In this document: piece by piece, positions 5,480 through 60,447 of the stretch
Numbering within the stretch: the first letter of the stretch is position 1
Layout of the letters: every line of letters starts with the position of its first letter
Assembly: GCF_963676685.1 (NCBI RefSeq)
Contig: NC_092357.1
Location: 51,956,001 to 52,020,000 of the forward strand
Length of the DNA stretch: 64,000 nt
Reading direction: 5' to 3'
From: Mytilus edulis
Lineage: Eukaryota
Translations under genes and position numbers: made by a program
Notes under the pieces: generated by a model
Told to the model about the DNA's origin: nothing
Database searches by the model: none
Seen by the model: the letters and a program-made list of their open reading frames with translations, nothing else

Positions 5480-6878
5480 TGAAGGCGCTTTAGGATACTA
5501 TGACTTACATTGAAGTGTTTTGAGGATACTGTGACTTACATTGAAGTGTTTTGAGGACACTATACCTTATATTGAAGTGTTTTGAGGACACTATACCTTA
5601 TATTGAAGTGTTTTGAGGATACTATATTTTATATTGAAGTGTTTTGAGGATACTATACCTTATATTGAAGTGTTTTGAGGATACTATACCTTATATTGAA
5701 GTGTTTTGATGATACTATACCTTATATTGAAGTGTTTTGAGGATACTATACATTATATTGAAGTGTTTTGAGGACACTATACCTTATATTGAAGTGTTTG
5801 AGGGTACTATATCTTATATTGAAGTGTTTTGAGGATACTATATTTTATGTTGAAGTGTTTTGAGGATACTATACCTTATATTAAAGTGTTTTGAGGATAC
5901 TATACCTTATATTGAAGTGTTTTGAGGATACTATACCTTATATTGAAGTGTTTTGAGGATACTATATTTTATATTGAAGTGTTTTGATGATACTATACCT
6001 TATATTGAAGTGTTTTGAGCATACTATACCTTATATTGAAGTGTTTTGAGCATACTATACCTTATATTGAAGTGTTTTGAGGATACTATACCTTATATTG
6101 AAGTGTTTTGAGGATATTATACGTTATGTTGAAGTGTTTTGAGGACACTATATCTTAAAGTCACAACAGCTCTTCATCTTGGACAAGGGCAGTGAATGGA
6201 ACATGAGAGCTGACATTGGAAAGAAGCTTGTGTTTCCAGAATGCCTACAAACAACCCTACGTCCAGACATTGTAGTTTGGTCATAGTCGTCAAAGATGAT
6301 AGTTGCAATAGAACTGACAGTTCCTTGGGAAGAGAGATGTGAAGAGGCATACCAGCGGAAAAAGGAAAAGTACTCAGAGCTGATGACAACATGTAGAGAG
6401 TGAGGTTGGAAAGCATGGCTGTTCCCAGTAGAAGTAGGCTGCAGAGGTTTTCCTGCACAGTCAGTATGGAGGATGCTACAGGTAATGGGAATAGTTGGAA
6501 AGGCAAGAAAGACAGCAGTTAGACAGCTAGGGGAAGCAGCAGAGCGTTCATCTTGCTGGTTATGGCATCGCCGAGATGATCTGAGCTGGAAGCCTAGTGC
6601 TGATGAGTAGAGGTTTGGCCACCTCTATTGACCCGCCAACCGGAGCATATAATGGTACAGGGTCAAAACATCTGGTGAAGGTTGGAACCATCTGAAGACA
6701 TCAAAGCACCGGCAGAGAGCGACAGGAATTCAGAGATGAAGGAAGATGAGCAGTCAAGAGAATATGACATTAGAAAAGCAGAATACCATCATCTGTATGT
6801 AATAATCATTATATTGAAGTGTTTTGAGGATACTATACGTTATATTGAAGTGTTTTGAGGATACTATGACTTACATTG
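5480..6878. repeat. 31-bp minisatellite anchored at the exon 3 splice donor, split by a LINE fragment
   Basis: Unit gaagtgttttgaggatactataccttatatt; about 22 copies at 5480-6155 and 2 at 6810-6878. Confidence 0.95.
6158..6808 (+). mobile_element. 5'-truncated Hero/NeSL-type non-LTR retrotransposon (restriction-like endonuclease C-terminus plus 3' UTR)
   Basis: Frame 6161-6610 reads ADIGKKLVFPECLQTTLRPDIVVWS*SSKMIVAIELTVPWEERCEEAYQRKKEKYSEL...*GWKAWLFPVEVGCRGF...EAAERSSCWLW: RLE motifs RPD...ELTVPWE with two in-frame stops. Confidence 0.85.
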
Positions 6879-7117
6879 TTTACAAAATTCATTTTCCACA
6901 TAAACTCCACTATCACATCCTGAAGCTTTGGAATATTCCACTTCTTCGTGGGGTTCATGGCCTTTATGAATCTTTCTATTTTTCAGTCTTGTATACTGTT
7001 TAAAAATAACATACACCAGTAGTCCCAGTACAACAGCACCGAGCACAGCACAGTAAACAGGTATCACATCAAAATCTTTCTTGTCCTTGGCCGTTGTTGG
7101 TTGTAATGTATAATTTT
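6875..7117 (-). CDS. NGFR: p75NTR/TNFRSF16-like receptor, exon 3 (short stalk, TM helix, juxtamembrane)
   Basis: Acceptor ttttag, donor T|gtaagt, phase 1-1. IPVYCAVLGAVVLGLLVYVIFK closely matches the p75NTR TM (IPVYCSILAAVVVGLVAYIAFK); the juxtamembrane DSGV motif is present. Confidence 0.92.
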
Positions 7118-20013: not shown

Positions 20014-23002
20014 TTAGGAAATAAGAAGTCAACGTTTTGCATCCAGTCGTCATCCCCTGGCTAGTCAGTGTTTGGGAAAAGGCTTGGTTCATAGTAAATT
20101 TCAAGCTTGTCGAGTCGTCAATGGTTTGTTGGTCGGGAAACTTGAATGATCCTGGTCTAAATTGTGTGTCAGTCAAAGAGCGGTGCCTGGACATGCACAA
20201 TAAAGTCAACGATTATCAGATATGGTCCGTATATATATATATGTCGAATTCGTGTGAATATCTAAAAAAAAGCGGTCGGATCCAGCCATTTTTTATAAGG
20301 GACACCACAGGTTCAAAAAATTGGGGGGTTCCAACCATATGTCCCCATTCGAAAGCATTGATCGTCAAAAGAGGTGGATCCACCACATGTATACCTGGTA
20401 CTATTATATATAATAATTATTATGTCCCAGCTTATACCTTATACAAGTTTTTGTTATTAAAAGCAACTGCCGATGGCGGGATTGATCATAGGTGTTTCCT
20501 ACTTGACCCACCACTAATATAAGTTTAAGGCGTCAGCAATCACAATTTTATTGTTTTTTAACCAATTTCCAATGAAATAAAAGTGGCCGTGTCCTGTGGC
20601 AATGATCATATCTGTGTCAAGCGTTTAGCACCTGTCCGAGTTAAACATTAAAAAATTCAATACAGAAAAGTAAAATTAGCAGTTGACCTAAGATAAACAG
20701 ATAAAACGTGTTATTTTTTGTCCTTGAGGTGAAATTTGGTTGATTTTTATTTCCGTGTTTCTAGAGTCAAGGCTACAACAAAGAGAACAAATTTAATAGT
20801 CTGTGTCCCCGAGTAAAAAGTAACACTTAAAATCCCATCTAAATTTTTATTGTACATCTTCTGTTTGGTCACTTTGATTAGAATGATAGAAACTAACGCA
20901 ATATAAAGGTATCAATTTAATATCGTTATTTCACATAGAATAATTAATGATTTTCAACTAATAACAGGTGTTTCAATTAGCATAGAATTGCTTTCAATTA
21001 ATTAAATCAATTATTGATCTACTGAAAACAGCAGAAATAGACAAATGTTTGATTTTTAATATCAGAAATGCCTGCGTCAACAGTTTGAAAATTAAATTTC
21101 CAAGCTTGTATCTTCTTGTCCTTTATTGAACACCATTATCTGGTGTGTTTTCCCTCTCGTCGTGCGATTATTTCCCCATCCCTTTTCCTATTTTGTTACG
21201 TTTAATGATGGCGATACATGCAATCGAGGGAAAACAATCGTTCTATGGACTGTATTTATTGATTAAAGGAAAACATTACGTTCGGAACCAAACCGTCATA
21301 AAAAATATAATTGTATTTGACTTTGATCTTCACTATTACATTAAAGTTAAGTTATGCTTCAGCAACCAAACGCTGTTAATTATGACTGAAATTCTCATCA
21401 GAGAAAATAAGATGCACACGAATGCTATTAACAAGTATTATAGCTTTGAGAAGATATCTTTAATGTTTGGTTGCATGGAAACTTTAGTTCGACTGATCGT
21501 GTTACTTTATGATGATACTGAGATAATGTTTTATACATTCAATGCCTGTACTAGAGTTTCAGATCAGTAATATTGGCTACATTTGATGTAAAATGTTTGA
21601 CTTCTTGATAATTGGAACAAAAATGTCATATATTATATATTTTATTTGTTGACATAAAAGTCCTTGTGGGTAGTTTTCCTTTATTTACTTTTTTCCCACA
21701 CAATTCGAATAAAAGGACAAAGTACTGTGTAATTCCTTTCTGTTAAGTTCTGTCATATTACCTAATACAAAGTAACAGCAGAGCCCTAGCCAGTAACAGG
21801 AAGAATGTTATAAAGACAATTTCACTGATGAATCATAAAGTTCAACTTCTATATGCCAACCATTTCATTAAATATAAGTTATGATAATCATATTAAATAA
21901 ATCTCAACGTAATATACAGTATATTGAATGAAAAGACAGGCTTTTCAGTTTACTTTAGATAACAGCAGAAAACACTGTGCAATTCTAGTCTAGTAGATGG
22001 TAACAGAAAGGAATTATTTAAAAAAAAATCATTACCTAGGCAGGTTTTCATCTTGAAAATACAGTTTCAAAAGATAAATGACATTGTTTGCTATTATCTT
22101 CTAATTGTGACCAATTTGAAATGATGTATTTTTCTTAAACTATGAAATAAAGCATTTTTTTTTTTTAAATAATTCCTACGTGTTTCCAACTCTGTCCTGT
22201 TACTTGTACTGTTACTCAAGATTTTTTCATGTTACCGACATTTCAGACTATATTTTAGTATATGTATTTACCTTTTGTATTGAAAATGATAAAATAAATA
22301 ATTGGCATTTGATAAACTATTGCAGGATATACTACAAATAGTATCTGTAACTTATTCCTTATTCCCATTAGAAACTTTTTTAAATTGATTCACTTTGGTA
22401 ATAGGAAAGAACTGGGATTTTTGGTATAATTTTTAAAATTGTCATTGTTACCCCCCACATTTAACATTTGTTTGAATTACAGACAACATTTTCTAGATCC
22501 TCAATGTGTGTTCTTCGATTGGTACTATGAAAATACCGGTTCTAAAGACAATTTTTTTGGTTTTTTTCCTATTGCAAAAAGTTAGACTTTTTCAGATATT
22601 GTCTCATATTTATTGACTTTGTTATATAAACATAATAAGTTTTGGGGGAAAAAATAATATATCAATGTAATAAAAAAATACTACATTAAGCGTGCATGTA
22701 TTTTTTAGACAGCCGAAAGAAAACATAAGTTAAAATCAGATGACTGCAGAACGGTGTATGGATAAACAAGGACTTTCCATTAAAAATGTCAAACAATGTA
22801 ATACATTCAACAAATTATGTACTGCATTAATAATAGGAACGGATACTACTATAGGAATAACCCGTAAGAAGAACGATTATATATATATATATACATTGTA
22901 CGCCAGAAAATATAAATTTCAATCACTTAAATTATTGTGTAAATGACTAAACATTTTTTTTCTATATTGACACTATGATTAGACAACATAAATATTACTT
23001 AC

Positions 23003-27221: not shown

Positions 27222-30217
27222 CTAGTCCTTATTATGCCCGGGGGCACATAGGGCAAGGACTAGTTCTTTCCACTCATCTCTGTTCTGTGCTTTCTTTTCT
27301 ATTACACCCCAGCTGATTCCATGTTCTTTCATTTCAGCTTCAACTGTTCTTCTCCAAGTTGTTTTGGGGCGCCTTTCTTCCTTTTCCCCTCAGGTGTCCA
27401 TCTTAGGGCTACTCTGGTCAAGTAGCTCTGCTGGTCTTCTAAGAACATGGCTAATCCATCTCCATCTTTTCTGCTTCAATAGAGTCTCCATGTTGTTGGA
27501 TCCTGTTGTTTCATGGAGGTCTTTGTTTGTGATTTTACGCGGCCAGAATATCCTTAATATCTTTCTAAGGCAACCGTTGTGAAAACTGGAGAGCTTGTTG
27601 ATGTCTTTTTCTGTCATTCTCCAGCATTCCGCCCCATATAGTAGCACTGCTAGTACACAACTGTTATATAATCTAATTTTGGTGTTCTTACTGATGTTGC
27701 TTGTCTTCCAGATGTGTCTTAGTTTTAAAAATGCAGTTCTTGCTTTTCCTATTTTGGCTCTGATGTCTTTGTCTGCTCCTCCTTCAGATGTTACGATGCT
27801 GCCCAAGTAGGTGAAAGATGAAGTGCAAACTAGGGGTGTCCCATTTAAATCTATTAAAGGAGGCTCTGAGGTGTTAAGAGGCATCACTTCTGATTTCTTG
27901 ATGTTGATATTTAATCCAATCAAACTTGCATTCTTTTGTAACTTAGTGGTTTTGTCTTGCATGTGTGTTTCTAGATGCGACAATAAGGCCAGATCATCTG
28001 CAAAGTCCAGATCTTCTAGGTAGCTAAAAAGAGTCCATCTAATGCCTGTGTTGTTACTGTTACTGATGGTGGAATTCATTACCCAATCGACAACTATTAT
28101 GAATAGAAGGGAAGACATAACACAGCCTTGTCTAACTCCAGATTTTACTAGAAAGCTGATGTCTGATGAAGTTCCCACAGTGCATCTGAATTCTGTATAG
28201 AACATTTCGATAAGTTGTACTATTTTTGCTGGTATTCCATAGCATCGTAAAATCTTCCATAAGCTTTCTCTGTGTATGCTGTCAAAGGCTTTTTCAAAGT
28301 CTATAAAGTTGATTATCAATTGTCTCTGCCATTCTGTGCACTGTTCAAGGATGTTTCGTAGCACGAATATGTGATCACAACAACTCTTTCCTTTTCTAAA
28401 GCCTGCCTGTTCTTTTCTGAGTTTGTTGTCAATTGCTGTTTTAATTCTGTCTATTAGTATTTTGGTGAAAATTTTACTTGGGATTGGTAATAAGGTGATT
28501 CCTCTCCAGTTATTGCAGTTTGTGAGATCACCTTTCTTATCCAGTCTTATGATGTTACCTTCTGACCAGTTTTTAGGTATCTTGATATTTTGCCAGATCT
28601 CTTTGAATGGTGTGTGAAGAATGTTTGCTGTTAAGGCTGGATCTGATTTAAATAGCTCTGCTGATAGCTTATCGTTTCCTGGGGCTTTGTTGTTTTTAAG
28701 ACTCCTTACTGCTCTGATAATCTCCGATCTTGATGGAATTTCTATATTTACTTCAAGGTCGTGCTCTGCTATGGGTATGTTTGCTGTTGTTTCTGGTTCT
28801 GGCCTATTTAATACTTCTTTGAAGTGCTCATTCCATCTATTCTCTTGTTCTCTTTCAGATGTTATTAGATTACCCTGTTTGTCTTTTACTGGCATGTTGG
28901 TGTTTCTTTTTTTACCACAAAGTTTCTTTGTAATTTGGTAAAGGTCGCCCATTCTTTGCTCAGACGCAGCTTTTTCAGCCTCCAGAGCCAATCCCTCGAT
29001 GAAATCTTTTTTATCTTTTCTGGTGGCTTTCTTAACGTCCTTGTGACAGTTGGAGTATTGACCCATTAGTCTATCTTTTAGTCTATCAGAGCGAGTGTTG
29101 CAGATCTTTTTCTTTAGCTCTTTCCTGTTGTCAATCAGTGTCCATGTCTCTTGTTTGATCCATTCTTTGTGCTTTTGGCGTTTGAAACCCAATATTTTTT
29201 CACTGGTCTTTTTAAACAGATCTTCCACTTCTTGCCATTGTTCATCTACTGTTTCACTGTCTTCAGTGTTGTTACTTTTGAGTTGTTCTAAGAGTTGAAA
29301 GCGGTTCTTCAGTTCTAATTTGAAGTCATGGTTGGTTTTCATGTGTCTGAGTTTCCCTGTGTCGAATCTCTGTACTCTGCAAGGTTCTGATGCTCTCATA
29401 AGTTTAAGTTTGATGTTTGCTGTGACAAGATGATGGTCACTTCCAACATCAGCGCCTCGCCTTATTCTCACATCTTGTAAGGATCTTCTCCATTTGCCAT
29501 TAATTGCTATGTGGTCGATCTGGTTTTTATCTCTGCCTCCAGGTGATACCCAAGTCAGCTTATGGACATCCTTGTGTGGGAACAATGTTCCACTTATTAC
29601 AAGATTGTTCAGTCCACAAAAGTCTACTAGATGTTCTCCATTTTCGTTCATGATCCCACAGCCATGTTTCCCCATTATTCTCTCAAAACCACTGTTATCT
29701 TGCCCCACTTTAGCATTAAAATCTCCCATGATGATTGTTAGGTCTTTTTTCGGGATTTTCTCTATCTCAGCTTGGAGCATTTCATAAAATTCTATCTTAA
29801 TTTCTTTATCAGCTTCATTTGTTGGAGAATAGACTTGGATTATTGATGTCTTTATAGGTTTTGTATTTAGTCTTGCTGTTATTATTCTTTCATTGACTGG
29901 ATTATACTCAATGAGTGATTTAGAGGCTGATTTGTTGAGGATAATGGCAACTCCCCCTTGTGTTTGTCATCTTTTCTACCAGAATATATGATTGTATCTC
30001 CTGTATTTGTCAAGTTTTTGCCAAACCCTGTCCATCTACATTCACTTATACCTAATATGTGCAGCTTGTTTTCCTTCATTTCTCTTAACACTTGGGCTTG
30101 TTTTCCTGTCTCATACATGGTACGGATATTCAAAAAACCCAATTTAAGTTTGGTTCTCGCATTCAGGATACTTTTCGTGTGACTAGCTTCCTGTTGGCTT
30201 TCACTAGTCCCATTCAT
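27222..30217 (-). pseudogene. RTE endonuclease-reverse transcriptase ORF with two frameshifts (~29957 and ~27422)
   Basis: ORFs 29882-30217 and 27390-29780 join via a frameshift before GVAIILN. Motifs GISECRW, GDFNA, GSDH, GVRQGC, DFADD, YLGS; the C-terminus ALRWTPEGKRKKGRPKTTWRR...GHNKD* is in a shifted frame. Confidence 0.9.
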
Positions 30218-30595
30218 TTACGCAGAATTCTGCTGGTATTCTGATGATACGAGACGAGTTAAATTTTTTCTAATCCTTGTTTCCGTAATCAGATGCTATT
30301 TTATGAGTAGGGGAGATTACCCCCTAGCTCAACCTCCAACCTGGTGGACCAGGGTTATTTGTTTATGGTTTTCCTTCCAATAGATAGATGCCTTCCTTGG
30401 CTTACGAGTCTGATCTACCCGTTGATTTTGATGTTAGAGTTCTCTTCTCTTAGGAAAGTTGCCGTAACCAGGCTGCGACCCTCTCCTGGCCGACTATTTT
30501 ACCCATAGTTGGGGCAAGGTTAATGAGTGCTAGGGCATGTCCACATACCAGTGGGCCTACACACTGCATTTCTGGGGCCCTTGCTGCTCCGAGAT

Positions 30596-42849: not shown

Positions 42850-43435
42850 TGTGACACCACCAAAATTCAGACTTTATTTACATGAAATATCCATTGTGTA
42901 TTAGTTTTATAAAATTTGGTTGTGATAAACTAAAGTTAAAGAACAGAAATAAAAAAATCAGCAATTTTTATATTTGTAAAGGGGCATAACTCTTCAACAG
43001 TAAGCCACCAAATTGCTAACTTTATCTGTATTTTGTTGTAACAGGTATTGTATATAAGTTTCATAACTTTTGGTTGAGAAAATCTAAAGTTAGAGAAAGG
43101 AAACGAAAAATTCTGCCATTAAATTTTTTCATTAGTGAAGGAGCATAACTCTAGAACGGTTAAAGTGACACCACCAAAATTCAAACTTGATCTGTGTTTT
43201 GTGGTTCGAAGCATTTGATAAATAAGCTTCATAGAATTTGGTAAGGAAAACTTGAAAGTCAGAGACGGAAACCAACTTTGGGTGGTACTTAAATATTTTT
43301 CCAAACTTGTTTCAGAATCCCATATTTGAACTTCATGTAACATTGTAATACTTTATTCTTGTAATTTTTCATTAATAAATACTGTTTAAACTAAGAACAA
43401 ACAAGGGTAAAACTTGATGTCCCTCCCCTACAGCA
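42850..43435. repeat. Degenerate interspersed element with ~150-bp internal units
   Basis: gacaccaccaaaattca recurs at ~42853 and ~43167; similar to 9064-9290. Confidence 0.5.
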
Positions 43436-43523
43436 CCTCAGATTCATGTGATATTAGTAGACATACCTACTTGATGCCCCTCCGCTACAGCGCCTCAGAT
43501 TCATGTGATATTAGTAGTCATAC

Positions 43524-43688
43524 CTTGATTGATACGGGAGAGACTGGAGCCTCAGCTTCATGTGATTGTGGTTGTAAGTAATCGTCTGCTTCCATGAGTT
43601 CTTCTGGTCCGTCTGCTGCAACACTCAAACTTCTGGCAAGGTCATTCTTATCATAGGAATGACTTGGTAATCTCATCAATTTGTCTCC
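43524..43688 (-). CDS. EGFR: EGF receptor exon, proximal C-terminal tail
   Basis: GDKLMRLPSHSYDKNDL...ELMEADDYLQPQ, matching the ErbB GD-x-x-M-x-LPS...DADEYL-x-PQ pattern; phase 0-0. Confidence 0.92.
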
Positions 43689-47770: not shown

Positions 47771-47872
47771 CTCTGTCTGATCTGCTTCGACACCAGAATC
47801 TATTTCATTAGTAAAAGCGAGTAAAGGTGCATTTTTTTCAGGTTCATCTGGGATTTTCTTGTTGACATCTCC
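47771..47872 (-). CDS. EGFR: Candidate alternative EGFR exon after the kinase domain
   Basis: 102 nt, no stops, phase 0-0, pyrimidine-rich tract and acattag acceptor, GAG|gtatac donor. Translates GDVNKKIPDEPEKNAPLLAFTNEIDSGVEADQTE. Confidence 0.45.
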
Positions 47873-48846: not shown

Positions 48847-51800
48847 GTCTGAGACACAACAGTTGGACAGTTGAATGGATAAGATTGTAGATAGACTTAA
48901 CCAACCTTATCTCTGAGACACAACAGTTGGACAGTTGAATGGATAAGATTGTAGATAGACTTAACCAACCTTATCTGTCTGAGACACAACAGTTGGACAG
49001 TTGAATGGATAAGATTGTAGATAGACTTAACCAAACTTATCTCTGAGACACAACAGTTGGACAGTTGAATGGATAAGATTGTAGATAGACTTAACCAACC
49101 TTATCTCTGAGACACAACAGTTGGACAGTTGAATGGATAAGATTGTAGATAGACTTAACCAACCTTATCTCTGAGACACAACAGTTGGACAGTTGAATGG
49201 ATAAGATTGTAGATAGACTTAACCAACCTTATCTCTGAGACACAACAGTTGGACAGTTGAATGGATAAGATTGTAGATAGACTTAACCAACCTTATCTCT
49301 GAGACACAACAGTTGGACAGTTGAATGGATAAGATTGTAGATAGACTTAACCAACCTTATCTGTCTGAGACACAACAGTTGGACAGTTGAATGGATAAGA
49401 TTGTAGATAGACTTAACCAACCTTATCTCTGAGACACAACAGTTGGACAGTTGAATGGATAAGATTGTAGATAGACTTAACCAACCTTATCTCTGAGACA
49501 CAACAGTTGGACAGTTGAATGGATAAGATTGTAGATAGACTTAACCAACCTTATCTGTCTGAGACACAACAGTTGGACAGTTGAATGGATAAGATTGTAG
49601 ATAGACTTAACCAACCTTATCTCTGAGACACAACAGTTGGACAGTTGAATGGATAAGATTGTAGATAGACTTAACCAACCTTATCTCTGAGACACAACAG
49701 TTGGACAGTTGAATGGATAAGATTGTAGATAGACTTAACCAACCTTATCTCTGAGACACAACAGTTGGACAGTTGAATGGATAAGATTGTAGATAGACTT
49801 AACCAACCTTATCTCTGAGACACAACAGTTGGACAGTTGAATGGATAAGATTGTAGATAGACTTAACCAACCTTATCTGTCTGAGACACAACAGTTGGAC
49901 AGTTGAATGGATAAGATTGTAGATAGACTTAACCAACCTTATCTCTGAGACACAACAGTTGGACAGTTGAATGGATAAGATTGTAGATAGACTTAACCAA
50001 CCTTATCTCTGAGACACAACAGTTGGACAGTTGAATGGATAAGATTGTAGATAGACTTAACCAACCTTATCTCTGAGACACAACAGTTGGACAGTTGAAT
50101 GGATAAGATTGTAGATAGACTTAACCAACCTTATCTCTGAGACACAACAGTTGGACAGTTGAATGGATAAGATTGTAGATAGACTTAACCAATCTTATCT
50201 CTGAGACACAACAGTTGGACAGTTGAATGGATAAGATTGTAGATAGACTTAACCAATCTTATCTCTGAGACACAACAGTTGGACAGTTGAATGGATAAGA
50301 TTGTAGATAGACTTAACCAATCTTATCTCTGAGACACAACAGTTGGACAGTTGAATGGATAAGATTGTAGATAGACTTAACCAATCTTATCTCTGAGACA
50401 CAACAGTTGGACAGTTGAATGGATAAGATTGTAGATAGACTTAACCAACCTTATCTCTGAGACACAACAGTTGGACAGTTGAATGGATAAGATTGTAGAT
50501 AGACTTAACCAACCTTATCTCTGAGACACAACAGTTGGACAGTTGAATGGATAAGATTGTAGATAGACTTAACCAACCTTATCTCTGAGACACAACAGTT
50601 GGACAGTTGAATGGATAAGATTGTAGATAGACTTAACCAACCTTATCTCTGAGACACAACAGTTGGACAGTTGAATGGATAAGATTGTAGATAGACTTAA
50701 CCAACCTTATCTCTGAGACACAACAGTTGGACAGTTGAATGGATAAGATTGTAGATAGACTTAACCAACCTTATCTCTGAGACACAACAGTTGGACAGTT
50801 GAATGGATAAGATTGTAGATAGACTTAACCAACCTTATCTCTGAGACACAACAGTTGGACAGTTGAATGGATAAGATTGTAGATAGACTTAACCAACCTT
50901 ATCTCTGAGACACAACAGTTGGACAGTTGAATGGATAAGATTGTAGATAGACTTAACCAACCTTATCCTCTGAGACACAACAGTTGGACAGTTGAATGGA
51001 TAAGATTGTAGATAGACTTAACCAACCTTATCTCTGAGACACAACAGTTGGACAGTTGAATGGATAAGATTGTAGATAGACTTAACCAACCTTATCTCTG
51101 AGACACAACAGTTGGACAGTTGAATGGATAAGATTGTAGATAGACTTAACCAACCTTATCTCTGAGACACAACAGTTGGACAGTTGAATGGATAAGATTG
51201 TAGATAGACTTAACCAACCTTATCCTCTGAGACACAACAGTTGGACAGTTGAATGGATAAGATTGTAGATAGACTTAACCAACCTTATCTCTGAGACACA
51301 ACAGTTGGACAGTTGAATGGATAAGATTGTAAATAGACTTAACCAACCTTATCTCTGAGACACAACAGTTGGACAGTTGAATGGATAAGATTGTAGATAG
51401 ACTTAACCAACCTTATCTGCAGCACAGACAGACTAATGGATAAGATTGTAGATAGACTTAACCAATCTTATCTCTGAGACACAACAGTTGGACAGTTGAA
51501 TGGATAAGATTGTAGATAGACTTAACCAATCTTATCTCTGAGACACAACAGTTGGACAGTTGAATGGATAAGATTGTAGATAGACTTAACCAACCTTATC
51601 TCTGAGACACAACAGTTGGACAGTTGAATGGATAAGATTGTAGATAGACTTAACCAACCTTATCTCTGAGACACAACAGTTGGACAGTTGAATGGATAAG
51701 ATTGTAGATAGACTTAACCAACCTTATCTCTGAGACACAACAGTTGGACAGTTGAATGGATAAGATTGTAGATAGACTTAACCAACCTTATCTCTGAGAC

Positions 51801-54800
51801 ACAACAGTTGGACAGTTGAATGGATAAGATTGTAGATAGACTTAACCAACCTTATCCGCAGCACAGACAGACTAATGGATAAGATTGTAGATAGACTTAA
51901 CCAATCTTATCTCTGAGACACAACAGTTGGACAGTTGAATGGATAAGATTGTAGATAGACTTAACCAATCTTATCTCTGAGACACAACAGTTGGACAGTT
52001 GAATGGATAAGATTGTAGATAGACTTAACCAACCTTATCTCTGAGACACAACAGTTGGACAGTTGAATGGATAAGATTGTAGATAGACTTAACCAACCTT
52101 ATCTCTGAGACACAACAGTTGGACAGTTGAATGGATAAGATTGTAGATAGACTTAACCAACCTTATCTCTGAGACACAACAGTTGGACAGTTGAATGGAT
52201 AAGATTGTAGATAGACTTAACCAACCTTATCTCTGAGACACAACAGTTGGACAGTTGAATGGATAAGATTGTAGATAGACTTAACCAACCTTATCTGCAG
52301 CACAGACAGACTAATGGATAAGATTGTAGATAGACTTAACCAACCTTATCTCTGAGACACAACAGTTGGACAGTTGAATGGATAAGATTGTAGATAGACT
52401 TAACCAACCTTATCTCTGAGACACAACAGTTGGACAGTTGAATGGATAAGATTGTAGATAGACTTAACCAACCTTATCTCTGAGACACAACAGTTGGACA
52501 GTTGAATGGATAAGATTGTAGATAGACTTAACCAACCTTATCTCTGAGACACAACAGTTGGACAGTTGAATGGATAAGATTGTAGATAGACTTAACCAAC
52601 CTTATCTCTGAGACACAACAGTTGGACAGTTGAATGGATAAGATTGTAGATAGACTTAACCAAACTTATCTCTGAGACACAACAGTTGGACAGTTGAATG
52701 GATAAGATTGTAGATAGACTTAACCAAACTTATCTCTGAGACACAACAGTTGGACAGTTGAATGGATAAGATTGTAGATAGACTTAACCAACCTTATCTC
52801 TGAGACACAACAGTTGGACAGTTGAATGGATAAGATTGTAGATAGACTTAACCAACCTTATCTCTGAGACACAACAGTTGGACAGTTGAATGGATAAGAT
52901 TGTAGATAGACTTAACCAACCTTATCTCTGAGACACAACAGTTGGACAGTTGAATGGATAAGATTGTAGATAGACTTAACCAAACTTATCTCTGAGACAC
53001 AACAGTTGGACAGTTGAATGGATAAGATTGTAGATAGACTTAACCAATCTTATCTCTGAGACACAACAGTTGGACAGTTGAATGGATAAGATTGTAGATA
53101 GACTTAACCAACCTTATCTCTGAGACACAACAGTTGGACAGTTGAATGGATAAGATTGTAGATAGACTTAACCAACCTTATCTCTGAGACACAACAGTTG
53201 GACAGTTGAATGGATAAGATTGTAGATAGACTTAACCAATCTTATCTCTGAGACACAACAGTTGGACAGTTGAATGGATAAGATTGTAGATAGACTTAAC
53301 CAACCTTATCTCTGAGACACAACAGTTGGACAGTTGAATGGATAAGATTGTAGATAGACTTAACCAACCTTATCTCTGAGACACAACAGTTGGACAGTTG
53401 AATGGATAAGATTGTAGATAGACTTAACCAACCTTATCTCTGAGACACAACAGTTGGACAGTTGAATGGATAAGATTGTAGATAGACTTAACCAACCTTA
53501 TCTCTGAGACACAACAGTTGGACAGTTGAATGGATAAGATTGTAGATAGACTTAACCAAACTTATCTCTGAGACACAACAGTTGGACAGTTGAATGGATA
53601 AGATTGTAGATAGACTTAACCAACCTTATCTCTGAGACACAACAGTTGGACAGTTGAATGGATAAGATTGTAGATAGACTTAACCAACCTTATCTCTGAG
53701 ACACAACAGTTGGACAGTTGAATGGATAAGATTGTAGATAGACTTAACCAACCTTATCTCTGAGACACAACAGTTGGACAGTTGAATGGATAAGATTGTA
53801 GATAGACTTAACCAACCTTATCTCTGAGACACAACAGTTGGACAGTTGAATGGATAAGATTGTAGATAGACTTAACCAACCTTATCTCTGAGACACAACA
53901 GTTGGACAGTTGAATGGATAAGATTGTAGATAGACTTAACCAACCTTATCTCTGAGACACAACAGTTGGACAGTTGAATGGATAAGATTGTAGATAGACT
54001 TAACCAACCTTATCTCTGAGACACAACAGTTGGACAGTTGAATGGATAAGATTGTAGATAGACTTAACCAACCTTATCTCTGAGACACAACAGTTGGACA
54101 GTTGAATGGATAAGATTGTAGATAGACTTAACCAACCTTATCTCTGAGACACAACAGTTGGACAGTTGAATGGATAAGATTGTAGATAGACTTAACCAAC
54201 CTTATCTCTGAGACACAACAGTTGGACAGTTGAATGGATAAGATTGTAGATAGACTTAACCAACCTTATCTCTGAGACACAACAGTTGGACAGTTGAATG
54301 GATAAGATTGTAGATAGACTTAACCAAACTTATCTCTGAGACACAACAGTTGGACAGTTGAATGGATAAGATTGTAGATAGACTTAACCAACCTTATCTC
54401 TGAGACACAACAGTTGGACAGTTGAATGGATAAGATTGTAGATAGACTTAACCAACCTTATCTCTGAGACACAACAGTTGGACAGTTGAATGGATAAGAT
54501 TGTAGATAGACTTAACCAATCTTATCTCTGAGACACAACAGTTGGACAGTTGAATGGATAAGATTGTAGATAGACTTAACCAACCTTATCTCTGAGACAC
54601 AACAGTTGGACAGTTGAATGGATAAGATTGTAGATAGACTTAACCAACCTTATCTCTGAGACACAACAGTTGGACAGTTGAATGGATAAGATTGTAGATA
54701 GACTTAACCAACCTTATCTCTGAGACACAACAGTTGGACAGTTGAATGGATAAGATTGTAGATAGACTTAACCAACCTTATCTCTGAGACACAACAGTTG

Positions 54801-54911
54801 GACAGTTGAATGGATAAGATTGTAGATAGACTTAACCAACCTTATCTCTGAGACACAACAGTTGGACAGTTGAATGGATAAGATTGTAGATAGACTTAAC
54901 CAAACTTATCC
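48847..54911. repeat. 64-bp satellite array, ~6.1 kb, about 95 copies, in an EGFR kinase intron
   Basis: Unit ctctgagacacaacagttggacagttgaatggataagattgtagatagacttaaccaaccttat; copies are near-identical. Confidence 0.98.
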
Positions 54912-55331: not shown

Positions 55332-55946
55332 CTGAAAATAAAAAGTTGAAGTGTGATCTCTTGTTCTCTATGGATATAAGTATTCTGTGAACTGGAAGTT
55401 GGGGAGTAATTGGTTTGAAAATGTGTTACACAGTATAGCAGGCTCTCATGAAGCCCTAATAACCAATTTCAGGATGCTATCATTAAACAAAGTTTGCTTC
55501 ATAGGGTTTATTTCATACTTTACATTTGATCTTCCAAGGTGTTTTTAACACTAAATTTATTTGATTGTTACTGGATTTGAGAATTGCAACAATTATCTTT
55601 CAACTCTTGAGACAGGTAGTCTTCATCATGTTTATGGATTACATGTAAAAATAATTGCTTACTGAATACTGATTCCTAAATCTTAGGCTTTCTTTGTACT
55701 TTTTCTTGAAATATGGTAGATAATTTTCCACTTCCATTGTCATTTGACGGGTGAGAACAGACCGATTCCACAAATATATAAATTCAACTATAAAGGCTAT
55801 TCTTGCTAACAAACGGTCACTAAGATTAACCTTCATTGAGGTCATATGTCTTCTAATCTAATGCTAAAGACCTTATGGTATCATGGTACACTGTACAAAG
55901 TTATAAGTGACTGATTGCTTTATAATCAATAAATCATAAATTCTTA

Positions 55947-57416
55947 CCATTCAAAGGGCAATAACTTATGATTATTTTACCTTTCCTCCACCAGCTACAT
56001 TATAACCATTCAAAGGGCAATAACGAATGACTATTTTACCTTTCCTCCACCAGCTACATTATAACCATTCAAAGGGCAATAACGAATGACGATTTTACCT
56101 TTCCTCTACCAGCTACATTATAACCATTCAAAGGGCAATAACTAATGACTATTTTACCTTTCCTCCACCAGCTACATTATAACCATTCAAAGGGCAATAA
56201 CTAATGACTCTTTTACCTTTCCTCCACCAGCTACATTATAACCATTCAAAGGGCAATAACTAATGACTATTTTACCTTTCCTCCACCAGCTACATTATAA
56301 CCATTCAAAGGGCAATAACTAATGACTCTTTTACCTTTCCTCCACCAGCTACATTATACCAATTCAAAGGGCAATAACTTATGACTATTTTACCTTTCCT
56401 CCACCAGCTACATTATAACCATTCAAAGGGCAATAACTAATGACTATTTTACCTTTCCTCCACCAGCTACATTATAACCATTCAAAGGGCAATAACTAAT
56501 GACTCTTTTACCTTTCCTCCACCAGCTACATTATAACCATTCAAAGGGCAATAACTAATGACTCTTTTACCTTTCCTCCACCAGCTACATTATAACCATT
56601 CAAAGGGCAATAACTAATGACTCTTTTACCTTTCCTCCACCAGCTACATTATAACCATTCAAAGGGCAATAACGAATGACTATTTGACCTTTCCTCCACC
56701 AGCTACATTATAACCATTCAAAGGGCAATAACGAATGACGATTTTACCTTTCCTCTACCTGCTACATTATAACCATTCAAAGGGCAATAACTAATGACTA
56801 TTTGACCTTTCCTCCACCAGCTACATTATAACCATTCAAAGGGCAATAACTAATGACTCTTTTACCTTTCCTCCACCAGCTACATTATAACCATTCAAAG
56901 GGCAATAACTAATGACTATTTGACCTTTCCTCCACCAGCTACATTATAACCATTCAAAGGGCAATAACTAATGACTCTTTTACCTTTCCTCCACCAGCTA
57001 CATTATAACCATTCAAAGGGCAATAACTAATGACTCTTTTACCTTTCCTCCACCAGCTACATTATAACCATTCAAAGGGCAATAACGAATGACTATTTTA
57101 CCTTTCCTCCACCAGCTACATTATAACCATTCAAAGGGCAATAACTAATGACTCTTTTACCTTTCCTCCACCAGCTACATTATAACCATTCAAAGGGCAA
57201 TAACTAATGACTATTTGACCTTTCCTCCACCAGCTACATTATAACCATTCAAAGGGCAATAACTAATGACTATTTTACCTTTCCTCCACCAGCTACATTA
57301 TAACCTTTCAAAGGGCAATAACTAATGACTATTTTACCTTTCCTCCACCAGCTACATTATAACCATTCAAAGGGCAATAACTAATGACTATTTTACCTTT
57401 CCTCCACCAGCTACAT
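55947..57416 (-). repeat. 59-bp minisatellite made of the exon 3' end plus splice donor (25 donor positions)
   Basis: Minus-strand unit gtaaaatagtcattagttattgccctttgaatggttataATGTAGCTGGTGGAGGAAAG; donors from 57396 to 55980 span 24 x 59 bp. Confidence 0.97.
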
Positions 57417-57488
57417 ATTCATCTTCATTGTAGTCCAGCAGTTTAGCAAGACCAAAATCTGTTATCTTTATTTGACCTGGACTTTGAA
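57397..57488 (-). CDS. EGFR: EGF receptor exon, DFG and activation loop
   Basis: [31 protein letters not shown]; phase 1-0. Confidence 0.96.
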
Positions 57489-58073
57489 CTGAAAAATATT
57501 ATAAAATATCTGTATTATCAACCTAATTGCTAACAAAAGAATAATAATTATTGTTTTAATACCTGTAGGAACTGGTTTGTTTTAAATATGTACTCCTTGA
57601 GATGCGTTTTTGATGCGTTTTGTTATTTGATTTTGCCATGTGATTGTGGACTTTCCGAATTGATTTTCCTCTGAGTTCAGTATTTTTGTGATTTTACTTT
57701 TTTCTCCAACCATCTATGTTCTTTTTTACTCAGAGTTGATGGTGTTACATCTTTTAAAACCTGTCTATCGCATTATTTGCCCTAAACATATGTTATTTCC
57801 TCTAAATTTATTCAACAGTGTGATTGTTTTATGTTCATGTTTTATTTCTTTGATGTGAAAAACTTGTAAGTTTGATTTGAGAAAGATGTCACTTTTTTTT
57901 TTACATGTATTTATTTCTTATAAGCAAACTACTTCTTAGTGTTCAATAAAAATATTATGAATCTTTGTAATATATGAGCTGCATTGGATAGAAATTAACC
58001 TTCTGCAAGTGCACATACACATGTACATTGCTAATACTTTAATTGATTTTGGAACATTCAAATAACAAATTAA

Positions 58074-58346
58074 GGTGGTACCTAACACTACAGAGAGATA
58101 ACTCTGTAAAGTCAGCTAAACGTTTTAATTTTGTTGCGTTGTTAAGGGAATATTAAGCTTCTCAATGATCAATATTGGTGTTTGTCAAACTGCTATATAA
58201 CCTGTGTAATTTTTCTGATAAAATGGTTGGTTCAAATTTTTTGAAATTTTTACATTTTTGTCAAAGGGTCAAAGTAAATACTTTGCCAAAATTTTATGAA
58301 AATTAAACGAGCCAAATTAATTTTAGTGACGGTGTTGGGTACCACC
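58074..58346. mobile_element. Kolobok-type MITE
   Basis: TTAA TSDs at 58070-58073 and 58347-58350; TIR GGTGGTACC(T/C)AACAC. Confidence 0.85.
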
Positions 58347-58483
58347 TTAAAGTTGAATGTTTGTCTGTTTTGTGGGTTCTTGTATTTCCTCAATTATCAA
58401 ACAGTTACACACTTTGAATAAAGATTTTTTAAACCAGTAATGTTAACAGATGTAAGGATATTCATTTCATAAGGTTGATTTCT

Positions 58484-58783
58484 ATCCATAACAGCTCATA
58501 CACTGACTATATCATCCATAACAGCTCATACACGGACTATATCATCCATAACAGCTCATACACTGACTATATCATCCATAACAGCTCATACACTGACTAT
58601 ATCATCCATAACAGCTCATAAACTGACTATATCATCCATAACAGCTCATACACTGACTATATCATCCATAACAGCTCATACACTGACTATATCACCCATA
58701 ACAGCTCATACACTGACTACATCATCCATAACAGCTTATACACTGACTATATCATCCATAACAGCTCATACACTGACTATATC
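58484..58783. repeat. 30-bp minisatellite, ~10 copies
   Basis: Unit atccataacagctcatacactgactatatc. Confidence 0.95.
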
Positions 58784-58867
58784 TTTTTCATTTCCCTATA
58801 CTCCTTTAATTATATCAAGTGCAATAAAAATAAGATAGGATTAGTCTATGTTCTGTATAGCCTTAAT

Positions 58868-59731
58868 CTGAAGTCTGTGATTGAGACATATCCTTACCTA
58901 CTACATTTCTGAAGTCTGTGATTGAGACATATCCTTACCTAGTACATTTCTGAAGTCTGTGATTTAGACATATCCTTACCTAGTACATTTCTGATGTCTT
59001 TGATTGAGACATATCCTTACCTAGTACATTTCTGAAGTCTGTGATTGAGACATATCCTTACCTAGTACATTTCTGATGTCTGTGATTGAGACATATCCTT
59101 ACCTAGTACATTTCTGAAGTCTGTGATTGAGACATATCCTTACCTAGTACATTTCTGAAGTCTGTGATTGAGACATATCCTTACCTAGTACATTTCTGAA
59201 GTCTGTGATTGAGACATATCCTTACCTAGTACATTTCTGATGTCTTTGATTGAGACATATCCTTACCTAGTACATTTCTGAAGTCTGTGATTGAGACATA
59301 TCTTTACCTAATACATTTCTGAAGTCTGTGATTGAGACATATCCTTACCTAATACATTTCTGAAGTCTGTGATTGAGACATATCCTTACCTAGTACATTT
59401 CTGAAGTCTGTGATTGAGACATATCCTTACCTAGTACATTTCTGATGTCTGTGATTGAGACATATCCTTACCTAGTACATTTCTGAAGTCTGTGATTGAG
59501 ACATATCCTTACCTAGTACATTTCTGAAGTCTGTGATTGAGACATATCCTTACCTAGTACATTTCTGATGTCTGTGATTGAGACATATCCTTACCTAGTA
59601 CATTTCTGATGTCTGTGATTGAGACATATCCTTACCTAGTACATTTCTGATGTCTGTGATTGAGACATATCCTTACCTAGTACATTTCTGATGTCTGTGA
59701 TTGAGACATATCCTTACCTAGTACATTTCTG
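58868..59731 (-). repeat. 41-bp minisatellite made of the exon 3' end plus splice donor (21 donor positions)
   Basis: Minus-strand unit gtaaggatatgtctcaatcacagac(a/t)tcAGAAATGTACTAG; donors from 59717 to 58897 span 20 x 41 bp. Confidence 0.97.
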
Positions 59732-59781
59732 GCTGCTAGATCTCTGTGTACAATTCCACGTTCTTCTAAATATGCCATACC
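59718..59781 (-). CDS. EGFR: EGF receptor exon, catalytic loop
   Basis: [21 protein letters not shown]; donor G|gtaagg; phase 0-1. Confidence 0.96.
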
Positions 59782-60162: not shown

Positions 60163-60447
60163 CCTTGCTATTTGTGTGGCCCAGTTCAACAGCACTTTAG
60201 AACCCACATTCTCTTTGTGTTTCCTAACATAGTCCAGTAAACAGCCCAGTGGCATTAACTGTGTAATTAACATCATTTGTGCAGTCATACAGACAGCTAG
60301 AATCCTGATACAACAGACATTGTCCACACTGGACATCACTCGTGCCTCTTCTAGTAATTCTTTATTCAGATTGGGTGATGTACCTTCCTGTAGTACTTTA
60401 ATGGCTACTGGTATCTTGACATTTTCATTGTCTGGTATCCAGAATCC
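60163..60447 (-). CDS. EGFR: EGF receptor exon, kinase N-lobe and hinge
   Basis: [19 protein letters not shown]...EEARVM...[15 protein letters not shown]...[10 protein letters not shown], diagnostic of the ErbB family. Confidence 0.97.

Follow-up and report, generated by a model that had tools for sequence, protein, structure and literature searches.

Minisatellites whose first unit lies across a splice donor have been described in several human genes. In intron 7 of human F7, the first unit of a 37-bp VNTR spans the donor and is followed by pseudo-donors that are functional, only the most upstream donor being used; loss of this first donor shifts splicing to the copy after it (Borensztajn et al. 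2006, PMC1557585). The same source reports that the lamin B2 and PDGF intron 4 minisatellites behave like that of F7, and that in 6-16 (IFI6) intron 2 and CBS intron 13 the two nearest pseudo-donors (the second and third donors) are also used (PMC1557585). A second group of cases comes from amphioxus, where so-called 'mirages' have been found in Adh3, in the globins BflGb6 and BflGb9, in troponin C and in PGBD5 (Ebner et al. 2010, PMC3087553; PMC3902484). They occur at 5′ and 3′ boundaries, are length-unstable and leave splicing undisturbed (PMC3087553, PMC3902484); their origin is called unclear in PMC3087553. In a literature search, mostly of open-access texts, neither a report of such arrays from mussels or other bivalves nor a genome-wide count of them against chance came up.

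The DNA analysed here is a 64,000-nt stretch of the Mytilus edulis genome (the window), which carries an EGFR gene on its minus strand; 28 coding exons were mapped in the window plus 200 kb of neighbouring DNA. The gene was recognised as EGFR because its exon at 60163-60447 is 100% identical to an EGFR-like protein of Mytilus trossulus. Exon junctions were set by fitting GT-AG sites to the Mytilus EGFR protein P0123, at most 25 nt from the first guess, and the spliced product obtained with the first donors was identical to P0123 at 1467 of 1467 residues. The shortest intron of the mapped gene has 208 nt. The features around coding exon 19 are as follows:

60163..60447, minus strand: EGFR coding exon 18, used as the search query (match: M. 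trossulus protein P0001)
59718..59781, minus strand: EGFR coding exon 19, 64 nt (21 residues), fitted to P0123
59712..59720, minus strand: authentic exon 19 donor, GT at 59717-59716, supported by RNA and by the protein fit; the only donor seen in RNA
After coding exon 19: EGFR intron 19, phase-1, 2229 nt
58867..59731, minus strand: 41-nt minisatellite (TRF: period 41, 21.1 copies, 97% matches)
59728..59731, minus strand: left break point, 4-nt microhomology CAGA, in the exon
58867..58870, minus strand: right break point, the same 4-nt CAGA, unique intron beyond
59677..59679, minus strand: in-frame TAG, ending exactly at donor copy 2 and present in every product of donors 2-21
57397..57488, minus strand: EGFR coding exon 20 (DFG exon); all RNA seen connects donor 1 to its acceptor

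Intron 19 also holds two high-copy transposon-like pieces (57600-57705 and 58070-58350) that draw hundreds of RNA reads. Elsewhere in the window lies an 858-aa open frame (27390-29966) which we take to resemble the endonuclease and reverse transcriptase of a non-LTR retrotransposon. The EGFR exon at 47772-47872 (34 codons) is apparently absent from some of the listed isoforms, the lengths of which differ by 34, and is likely to be a cassette exon.

The 41-nt unit joins the 14 nt that close EGFR coding exon 19 to the 27 nt that open intron 19. On the minus strand, its donors (GT) lie at 59717 and then every 41 nt down to 58897, a regular array of 21 that is far beyond chance. It is a head-to-tail repeat of minisatellite size whose terminal unit lies across a real exon-intron boundary and whose splice signal is reiterated inside the intron. 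A preliminary description of this DNA had counted 20 extra donors behind the exon, most of them the same as the true donor and with 14 nt of exon context; indeed, 17 of the 20 extra copies are identical to it from position -14 to +6. Copies 10, 11 and 21 depart from it at -4, with a second change at +5 in copy 11; AG/GTAA is retained in all 20. The true donor scores 5.9 bits, near the lower end of the 27 EGFR donors (5.7-12.7), and 19 of the 20 extra copies have the same score. The array contains six variant sites, one of which touches the donor 9-mer, about as the share of the 9-mer in the unit predicts. Seven unit types were distinguished, and these lie in patches, with neighbouring copies sharing variants. 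This patchwork, the clean unique flanks with their microhomology, and the occurrence of comparable arrays in other animals, assembled independently, all speak against the array or its copy number being an assembly artefact, which is very improbable even though the copy number comes from a single assembly and the 80 metagenome loci that have an EGFR-like exon included no mussel (best identity, 85%).

Read-through past donor 1 runs into the TAG. When donors 2-21 are spliced to the acceptor at 57488, the same stop is reached at codon 35 of the exon's frame (20/20 cases), the products lack the DFG motif, and nine junctions lie downstream of the stop. The preliminary description was thus right that use of any extra donor includes a stop, and that only the first of the 21 donors gives an intact kinase, the remainder giving stop-bearing transcripts that lack the DFG motif. 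A stop upstream of later junctions is a feature of regulated unproductive splicing (AS-NMD), and the alternative events at this exon share it in all 20 cases. Because the stop has nine junctions after it, NMD would be the likely fate of transcripts spliced at donors 2-21. The same reading frame led to the rejection of one candidate function, namely that selection maintains the spare donors as a reserve should the true donor mutate. The takeover by the next copy in F7 (PMC1557585) makes such a role conceivable, but in the mussel splicing from the next copy would end the frame ahead of the DFG motif and rescue nothing, so that back-up donors are scarcely credible here.

RNA sequences provided direct information on the donor used. 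From raw RNA run X24, nine reads fell on the stretch and six crossed the acceptor at 57488, all six joining it to donor 1 (agreement 1.0); the RNA contigs from X15-X17 did the same (3/3). These assignments rely on exon-specific letters carried by the reads and contigs past the 14 nt shared with the array copies. The RNA represents about 6% of one run, sampled at steady state with no NMD block and from animals not genotyped for the array; rows X18-X20 (small shares) were left out of the splice evidence. Junctions from extra donors were therefore found in 0/6 raw reads and 0/3 contigs at 57488 at low depth, and the value of 0/6 reads is still compatible with up to ~39% use of the extra donors at 95% confidence. 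At the protein level, 15 of the 22 members of the EGFR cluster were listed, from five Mytilus species, and all 15 were intact over the 15 residues at the exon 19-20 junction. The GKDM read-through appeared in none of these 15, although NMD isoforms would be invisible as proteins. The use of extra donors envisaged in the preliminary description was consequently not seen in the reads, the contigs or the listed proteins. Of its further proposal, that the alternatives are NMD substrates or encode a kinase-dead receptor, the part read from the sequence stood (stop-bearing and without the DFG motif in 20/20 cases), whereas no such transcript was among the six reads and three contigs.

Each spare GT is preceded by AG, and this AG/GT had been taken as the signature of recursive splice sites, at which the intron would be removed stepwise. 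The AG/GT core, present in 20/20 copies, is common to Drosophila recursive splice sites and the mussel array (PMC6110457), but in the latter it belongs to the donor itself. In flies, recursive sites carry very strong 3′ motifs, are found mainly in introns >40 kb and give segments nearly all >1 kb (Pai et al. 2018, PMC6110457); the mussel array has neither the strong 3′ site, nor the long intron, nor the kilobase segments of the fly sites. Acceptor scores at the AG of the 20 copies ranged from -1.7 to 1.9, compared with 2.4-15.9 (median 11.9) for the 27 real EGFR acceptors, on which the matrix had itself been trained. The T content before the AG was 0.18 in the copies; the real acceptors averaged 0.58, and none fell below 0.41. 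Intron 19 is 2.2 kb long, and the segments to be removed would measure 41 nt, far from the fly pattern (PMC6110457) and from the 208 nt of the gene's shortest intron. Recursive sites were rejected on these grounds, first of all because there is no pyrimidine tract, and stepwise removal of the intron is extremely unlikely.

A reading of the array as a device special to the exon 19 site was not supported either, since 25 of 26 loci of other animals lack copies at this donor, and similar arrays were found at the next exon and in three neighbouring genes, at acceptors and a stop codon as well as at donors. These arrays, together with an unrelated one in intron 19, are:

55946..57416, minus strand: second donor-spanning EGFR array, 59 nt x 25 (TRF), made of 20 nt of exon 20 plus intron
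43412..43525, minus strand: EGFR coding exon 25, 57-nt x 2 duplication that begins at the donor
58484..58783, no strand assigned: 30-nt x 10 array (TRF) in EGFR intron 19, unrelated and off the junction
5492..6880, minus strand: TNFR16-like gene, 31-nt array spanning the donor of the transmembrane exon, interrupted by an insert (~6158-6808)
L023:4982-5883: CSRNP donor array, 83-nt x 11
L023:1319-2184: CSRNP acceptor array, 56-nt x 15.5
L026:4109-5799: PLEKHA8 donor array, 51-nt x 33
L026:9512 to L027:2077: PLEKHA8 acceptor array, split, 54-nt x ~23
L025:7192-7644: PLEKHA8 stop-codon array, 69-nt x 6.4, starting in the last codons and crossing the stop

Within EGFR, junction copies within 400 nt were found at 2 of 27 donors (exons 19 and 20) and at 0 of 27 acceptors. 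Read-through into the 59-nt array behind exon 20 meets a stop at the third codon, and 4 of its 24 extra copies are changed at +3. The 64-nt x 95, 35-nt x 31 and 30-nt x 10 arrays of EGFR touch none of the mapped junctions. In the TNFR16-like gene, most copies of the 31-nt unit lack GT: the inner ones have AT in its place, while the end copies keep GT. The ~650-nt insert that splits this array resembles a piece of a retroelement. In CSRNP, arrays lie on two of the four coding junctions. The PLEKHA8 stop-codon array marks an exon edge that has no splice site. The unit joints of the 59-nt EGFR array and of the CSRNP arrays contain short filler sequence, unlike the CAGA microhomology of the 41-nt array. 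A Pfam search with nine exon pieces left two without a match and two more with weak off-family matches only; three of these four were confirmed by homologous proteins.

Three further observations were made on repeats in and around EGFR. The second copy of the 57-nt duplication at donor 25 has a good-looking donor of its own. The 64-nt x 95 array (48848-54910) fills most of intron 21 and ends ~80 nt before the acceptor. An 89-nt x 34 array with 99% identical copies extends from ~1.2 kb upstream of the EGFR start codon (L016:9301 to L017:2331).

In the 264 kb around EGFR, 7 of the 17 large arrays (>=10 copies) span a junction (five donors and two acceptors), against 0.29 expected (Poisson P 3e-8). 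The 17 arrays were listed by hand from TRF rows, with split arrays merged and two arrays with <80% matches included; the expected count assumes random placement of the founding units, and 27 of the 81 mapped junctions were placed approximately. The enrichment does not depend on the array that drew attention to the region: leaving out the 41-nt exon 19 array gave 6 against 0.28 expected, and outside the window 4 of 11 arrays span a junction against 0.15 expected (P 2e-5, or 3e-4 if the number of junctions is doubled). GC content was considered as the cause and rejected, the GC-matched expectation remaining at 0.26-0.29. Large arrays are also dense in this region (14 in 264 kb, compared with 12 in 1.6 Mb under the same filter).

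The wider sample of 1.6 Mb was drawn from 14 contigs at fixed positions, as 32 blocks of 50 kb each. Filtering for a period of 20-130, >=2.5 copies and >=80% matches, with overlaps merged, reduced 709 TRF rows to 93 arrays. With an automatic exon test, three donor-type arrays were found in the 1.6 Mb against 4.0 expected, so that no donor enrichment is shown there, and five acceptor-type arrays against 1.8 expected. This test is blunt (it found four of the seven known cases in the 264-kb region) and gives no proof of absence. When the 1.6-Mb sample was inspected by eye, one of its 12 arrays with >=10 copies was seen to span a junction:

L040-L041, block B02 29067-30264: ryanodine receptor acceptor array, 57-nt x 21 (Pfam E 6.4e-9)

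The enrichment of arrays on exon edges, ~20-fold over chance, is thus shown for the EGFR region only. Some side observations came from the same sample. The last copy of the ryanodine receptor array is the one that is continuous with the exon. A candidate 112-nt x 3 acceptor duplication lies at L072:4404-4753; its exon, which resembles a GPS/transmembrane segment, was confirmed neither by Pfam nor by homologous proteins. Two donor-like arrays (L076, block B09, 21699-21915; L077, 36011-36214) lie by exon-like pieces that carry stops, possibly belonging to a pseudogene.

Loci of other animals were inspected for the same intron. The phase-1 intron that follows a 10-residue stretch at the end of exon 19 is common to 26 of the 80 metagenome loci, and copies at its donor are absent in 25 of the 26, four of which have <300 bases downstream and several of which may be from one species. 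Conservation of the event, another feature of AS-NMD, is hence lacking: the position of the intron is conserved, while the donor copies are absent from 25 of the 26 non-mussel loci. The one exception is L262, where this EGFR donor bears an 82-nt x 3.6 array of independent origin (L262:4666-4961). Another donor is duplicated in both L262 (4103-4259) and L263, with different left break points, and a 44-nt acceptor array at L263:4420-4608 is absent from L262; the two loci appear to be allelic or closely related. A repeat scan of the other animals gave 14 TRF rows in 57 loci with >=2 coding blocks. A decayed 38-nt x 7 array at L204:879-1144, in the EGFR of another animal, resembles the donor region of the GxGxFG exon upstream of it. 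Arrays of this kind thus recur, as L262, L263 and L204 illustrate, and one of two near-identical loci may have an array that the other lacks.

The reading that best fits these results is that the 41-nt array is a tolerated by-product of DNA duplication, the 20 spare donors remaining silent as the first donor wins; this is the most likely explanation. The alternative put forward in the preliminary description was a dosage rheostat, in which splicing at the spare donors sends part of the EGFR pre-mRNA into NMD or yields a kinase-dead receptor anchored in the membrane, the more so the more copies there are. It agrees with the stop carried by all 20 alternatives, but not with the lack of extra donors in six reads and three contigs, although at this low depth and with no NMD block steady-state RNA hides NMD targets. 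The equality of 19 of the 20 copies with a true donor of 5.9 bits, itself among the weakest of 27, would favour leakage; in F7, however, identical donors show no competition (PMC1557585). The use of nearby pseudo-donors in human 6-16 and CBS (PMC1557585) offers a precedent, but if only donors 2-3 leaked, as in those human cases, copies past the third would not matter to dosage. The same donor is independently affected in L262, whereas 25 of the 26 loci of other animals have no copies, and arrays also lie at acceptors and at a stop codon of unrelated genes. On balance a rheostat is improbable. Against the tolerated by-product reading, the independent L262 array at the same donor could hint at selection. 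There is, on the other side, no sign that spare donors are retained: one of the six variant types falls in the donor 9-mer, and most TNFR16-like copies lack GT. The 97% likeness of the copies means that the absence of decay says little for or against donor retention.

If the array is such a by-product, its history and its effect on splicing can be outlined in four steps. The first is visible in the sequence: a 41-nt piece across the junction was repeated in tandem, and the two break points share 4 nt of microhomology; the exon 19 array with CAGA at both ends fits a microhomology-guided tandem duplication that was probably followed by expansion. Slippage or unequal exchange may then have produced the 21 near-identical copies. 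The spliceosome would pick the most upstream of the identical donors, as indicated by the F7 experiments and seen at low depth in the mussel, so that every copy would be removed as part of the intron, leaving the protein as it was. If splicing occasionally slipped to a later donor, the transcript would contain a stop ahead of nine junctions, and its likely clearance by NMD would be a tolerated cost and not a form of control.

The mussel array itself matters little, the receptor being apparently spliced normally, except as a natural substrate on which the F7 rule of preference for the most upstream donor could be examined in a mollusc, where 21 donors are equal. Of more consequence is the ~20-fold over-representation of arrays on exon edges across four neighbouring genes. 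Should this enrichment hold genome-wide, it would point to a mutational bias at exon borders, which would be relevant to intron gain and to errors in the annotation of bivalve genomes. A tentative explanation, possible but on present evidence rather unlikely, is that exon edges are minisatellite hot spots in very polymorphic marine invertebrates: strand invasion from a conserved exon would stall at the divergent intron or UTR, re-prime and recopy the edge. Exon edges would be where alleles stop matching because mussels are very polymorphic, M. galloprovincialis having 1.73% heterozygosity and 36.78% of its assembly hemizygous (PMC7653742). The PLEKHA8 stop-codon array and the L262/L263 pair, few as these cases are, would fit such stalling at the edge of homology. 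If this were its cause, mirages would be explained without any splicing role, donors, acceptors and the stop-codon edge all being affected; it would also account for the same EGFR donor being affected twice in different animals and for the richness of mussel and lancelet in such arrays. Genomes of this kind would then be a natural test of the choice of the first donor and the last acceptor.

The F7 VNTR and the mussel array are alike in that the first monomer spans the donor, identical pseudo-donors follow, and most alternatives have a premature stop (PMC1557585). In F7 only the most upstream donor is used (PMC1557585); in the mussel, six reads and three contigs, at low depth, point the same way. 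F7 has 5-9 copies that include 4 nt of exon, whereas the mussel has 21 copies that include 14 nt; F7 is polymorphic and was studied with 50 constructs (PMC1557585), while the mussel array is known from the sequence of one assembly. In human 6-16, CBS, lamin B2 and PDGF the donor is reiterated 10-25 times, as it is in the mussel; 6-16 and CBS use the two nearest pseudo-donors, a use not seen in the mussel at low depth (PMC1557585). The amphioxus mirages and the mussel arrays are both minisatellite-like duplications of exon-intron boundaries, found at both ends of introns and several times per genome (PMC3087553, PMC3902484). For the mirages, units of 10-160 bp, normal splicing and haplotype length variation have been shown (PMC3087553, PMC3902484). 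The mussel differs in being a mollusc and not a cephalochordate, in providing a count against chance (7/17 compared with 0.29 expected) and in having one array across a stop codon. Judged by its structure, the mussel array appears to be a further case of the known junction-spanning minisatellite, of the 'mirage' or F7-type VNTR kind.
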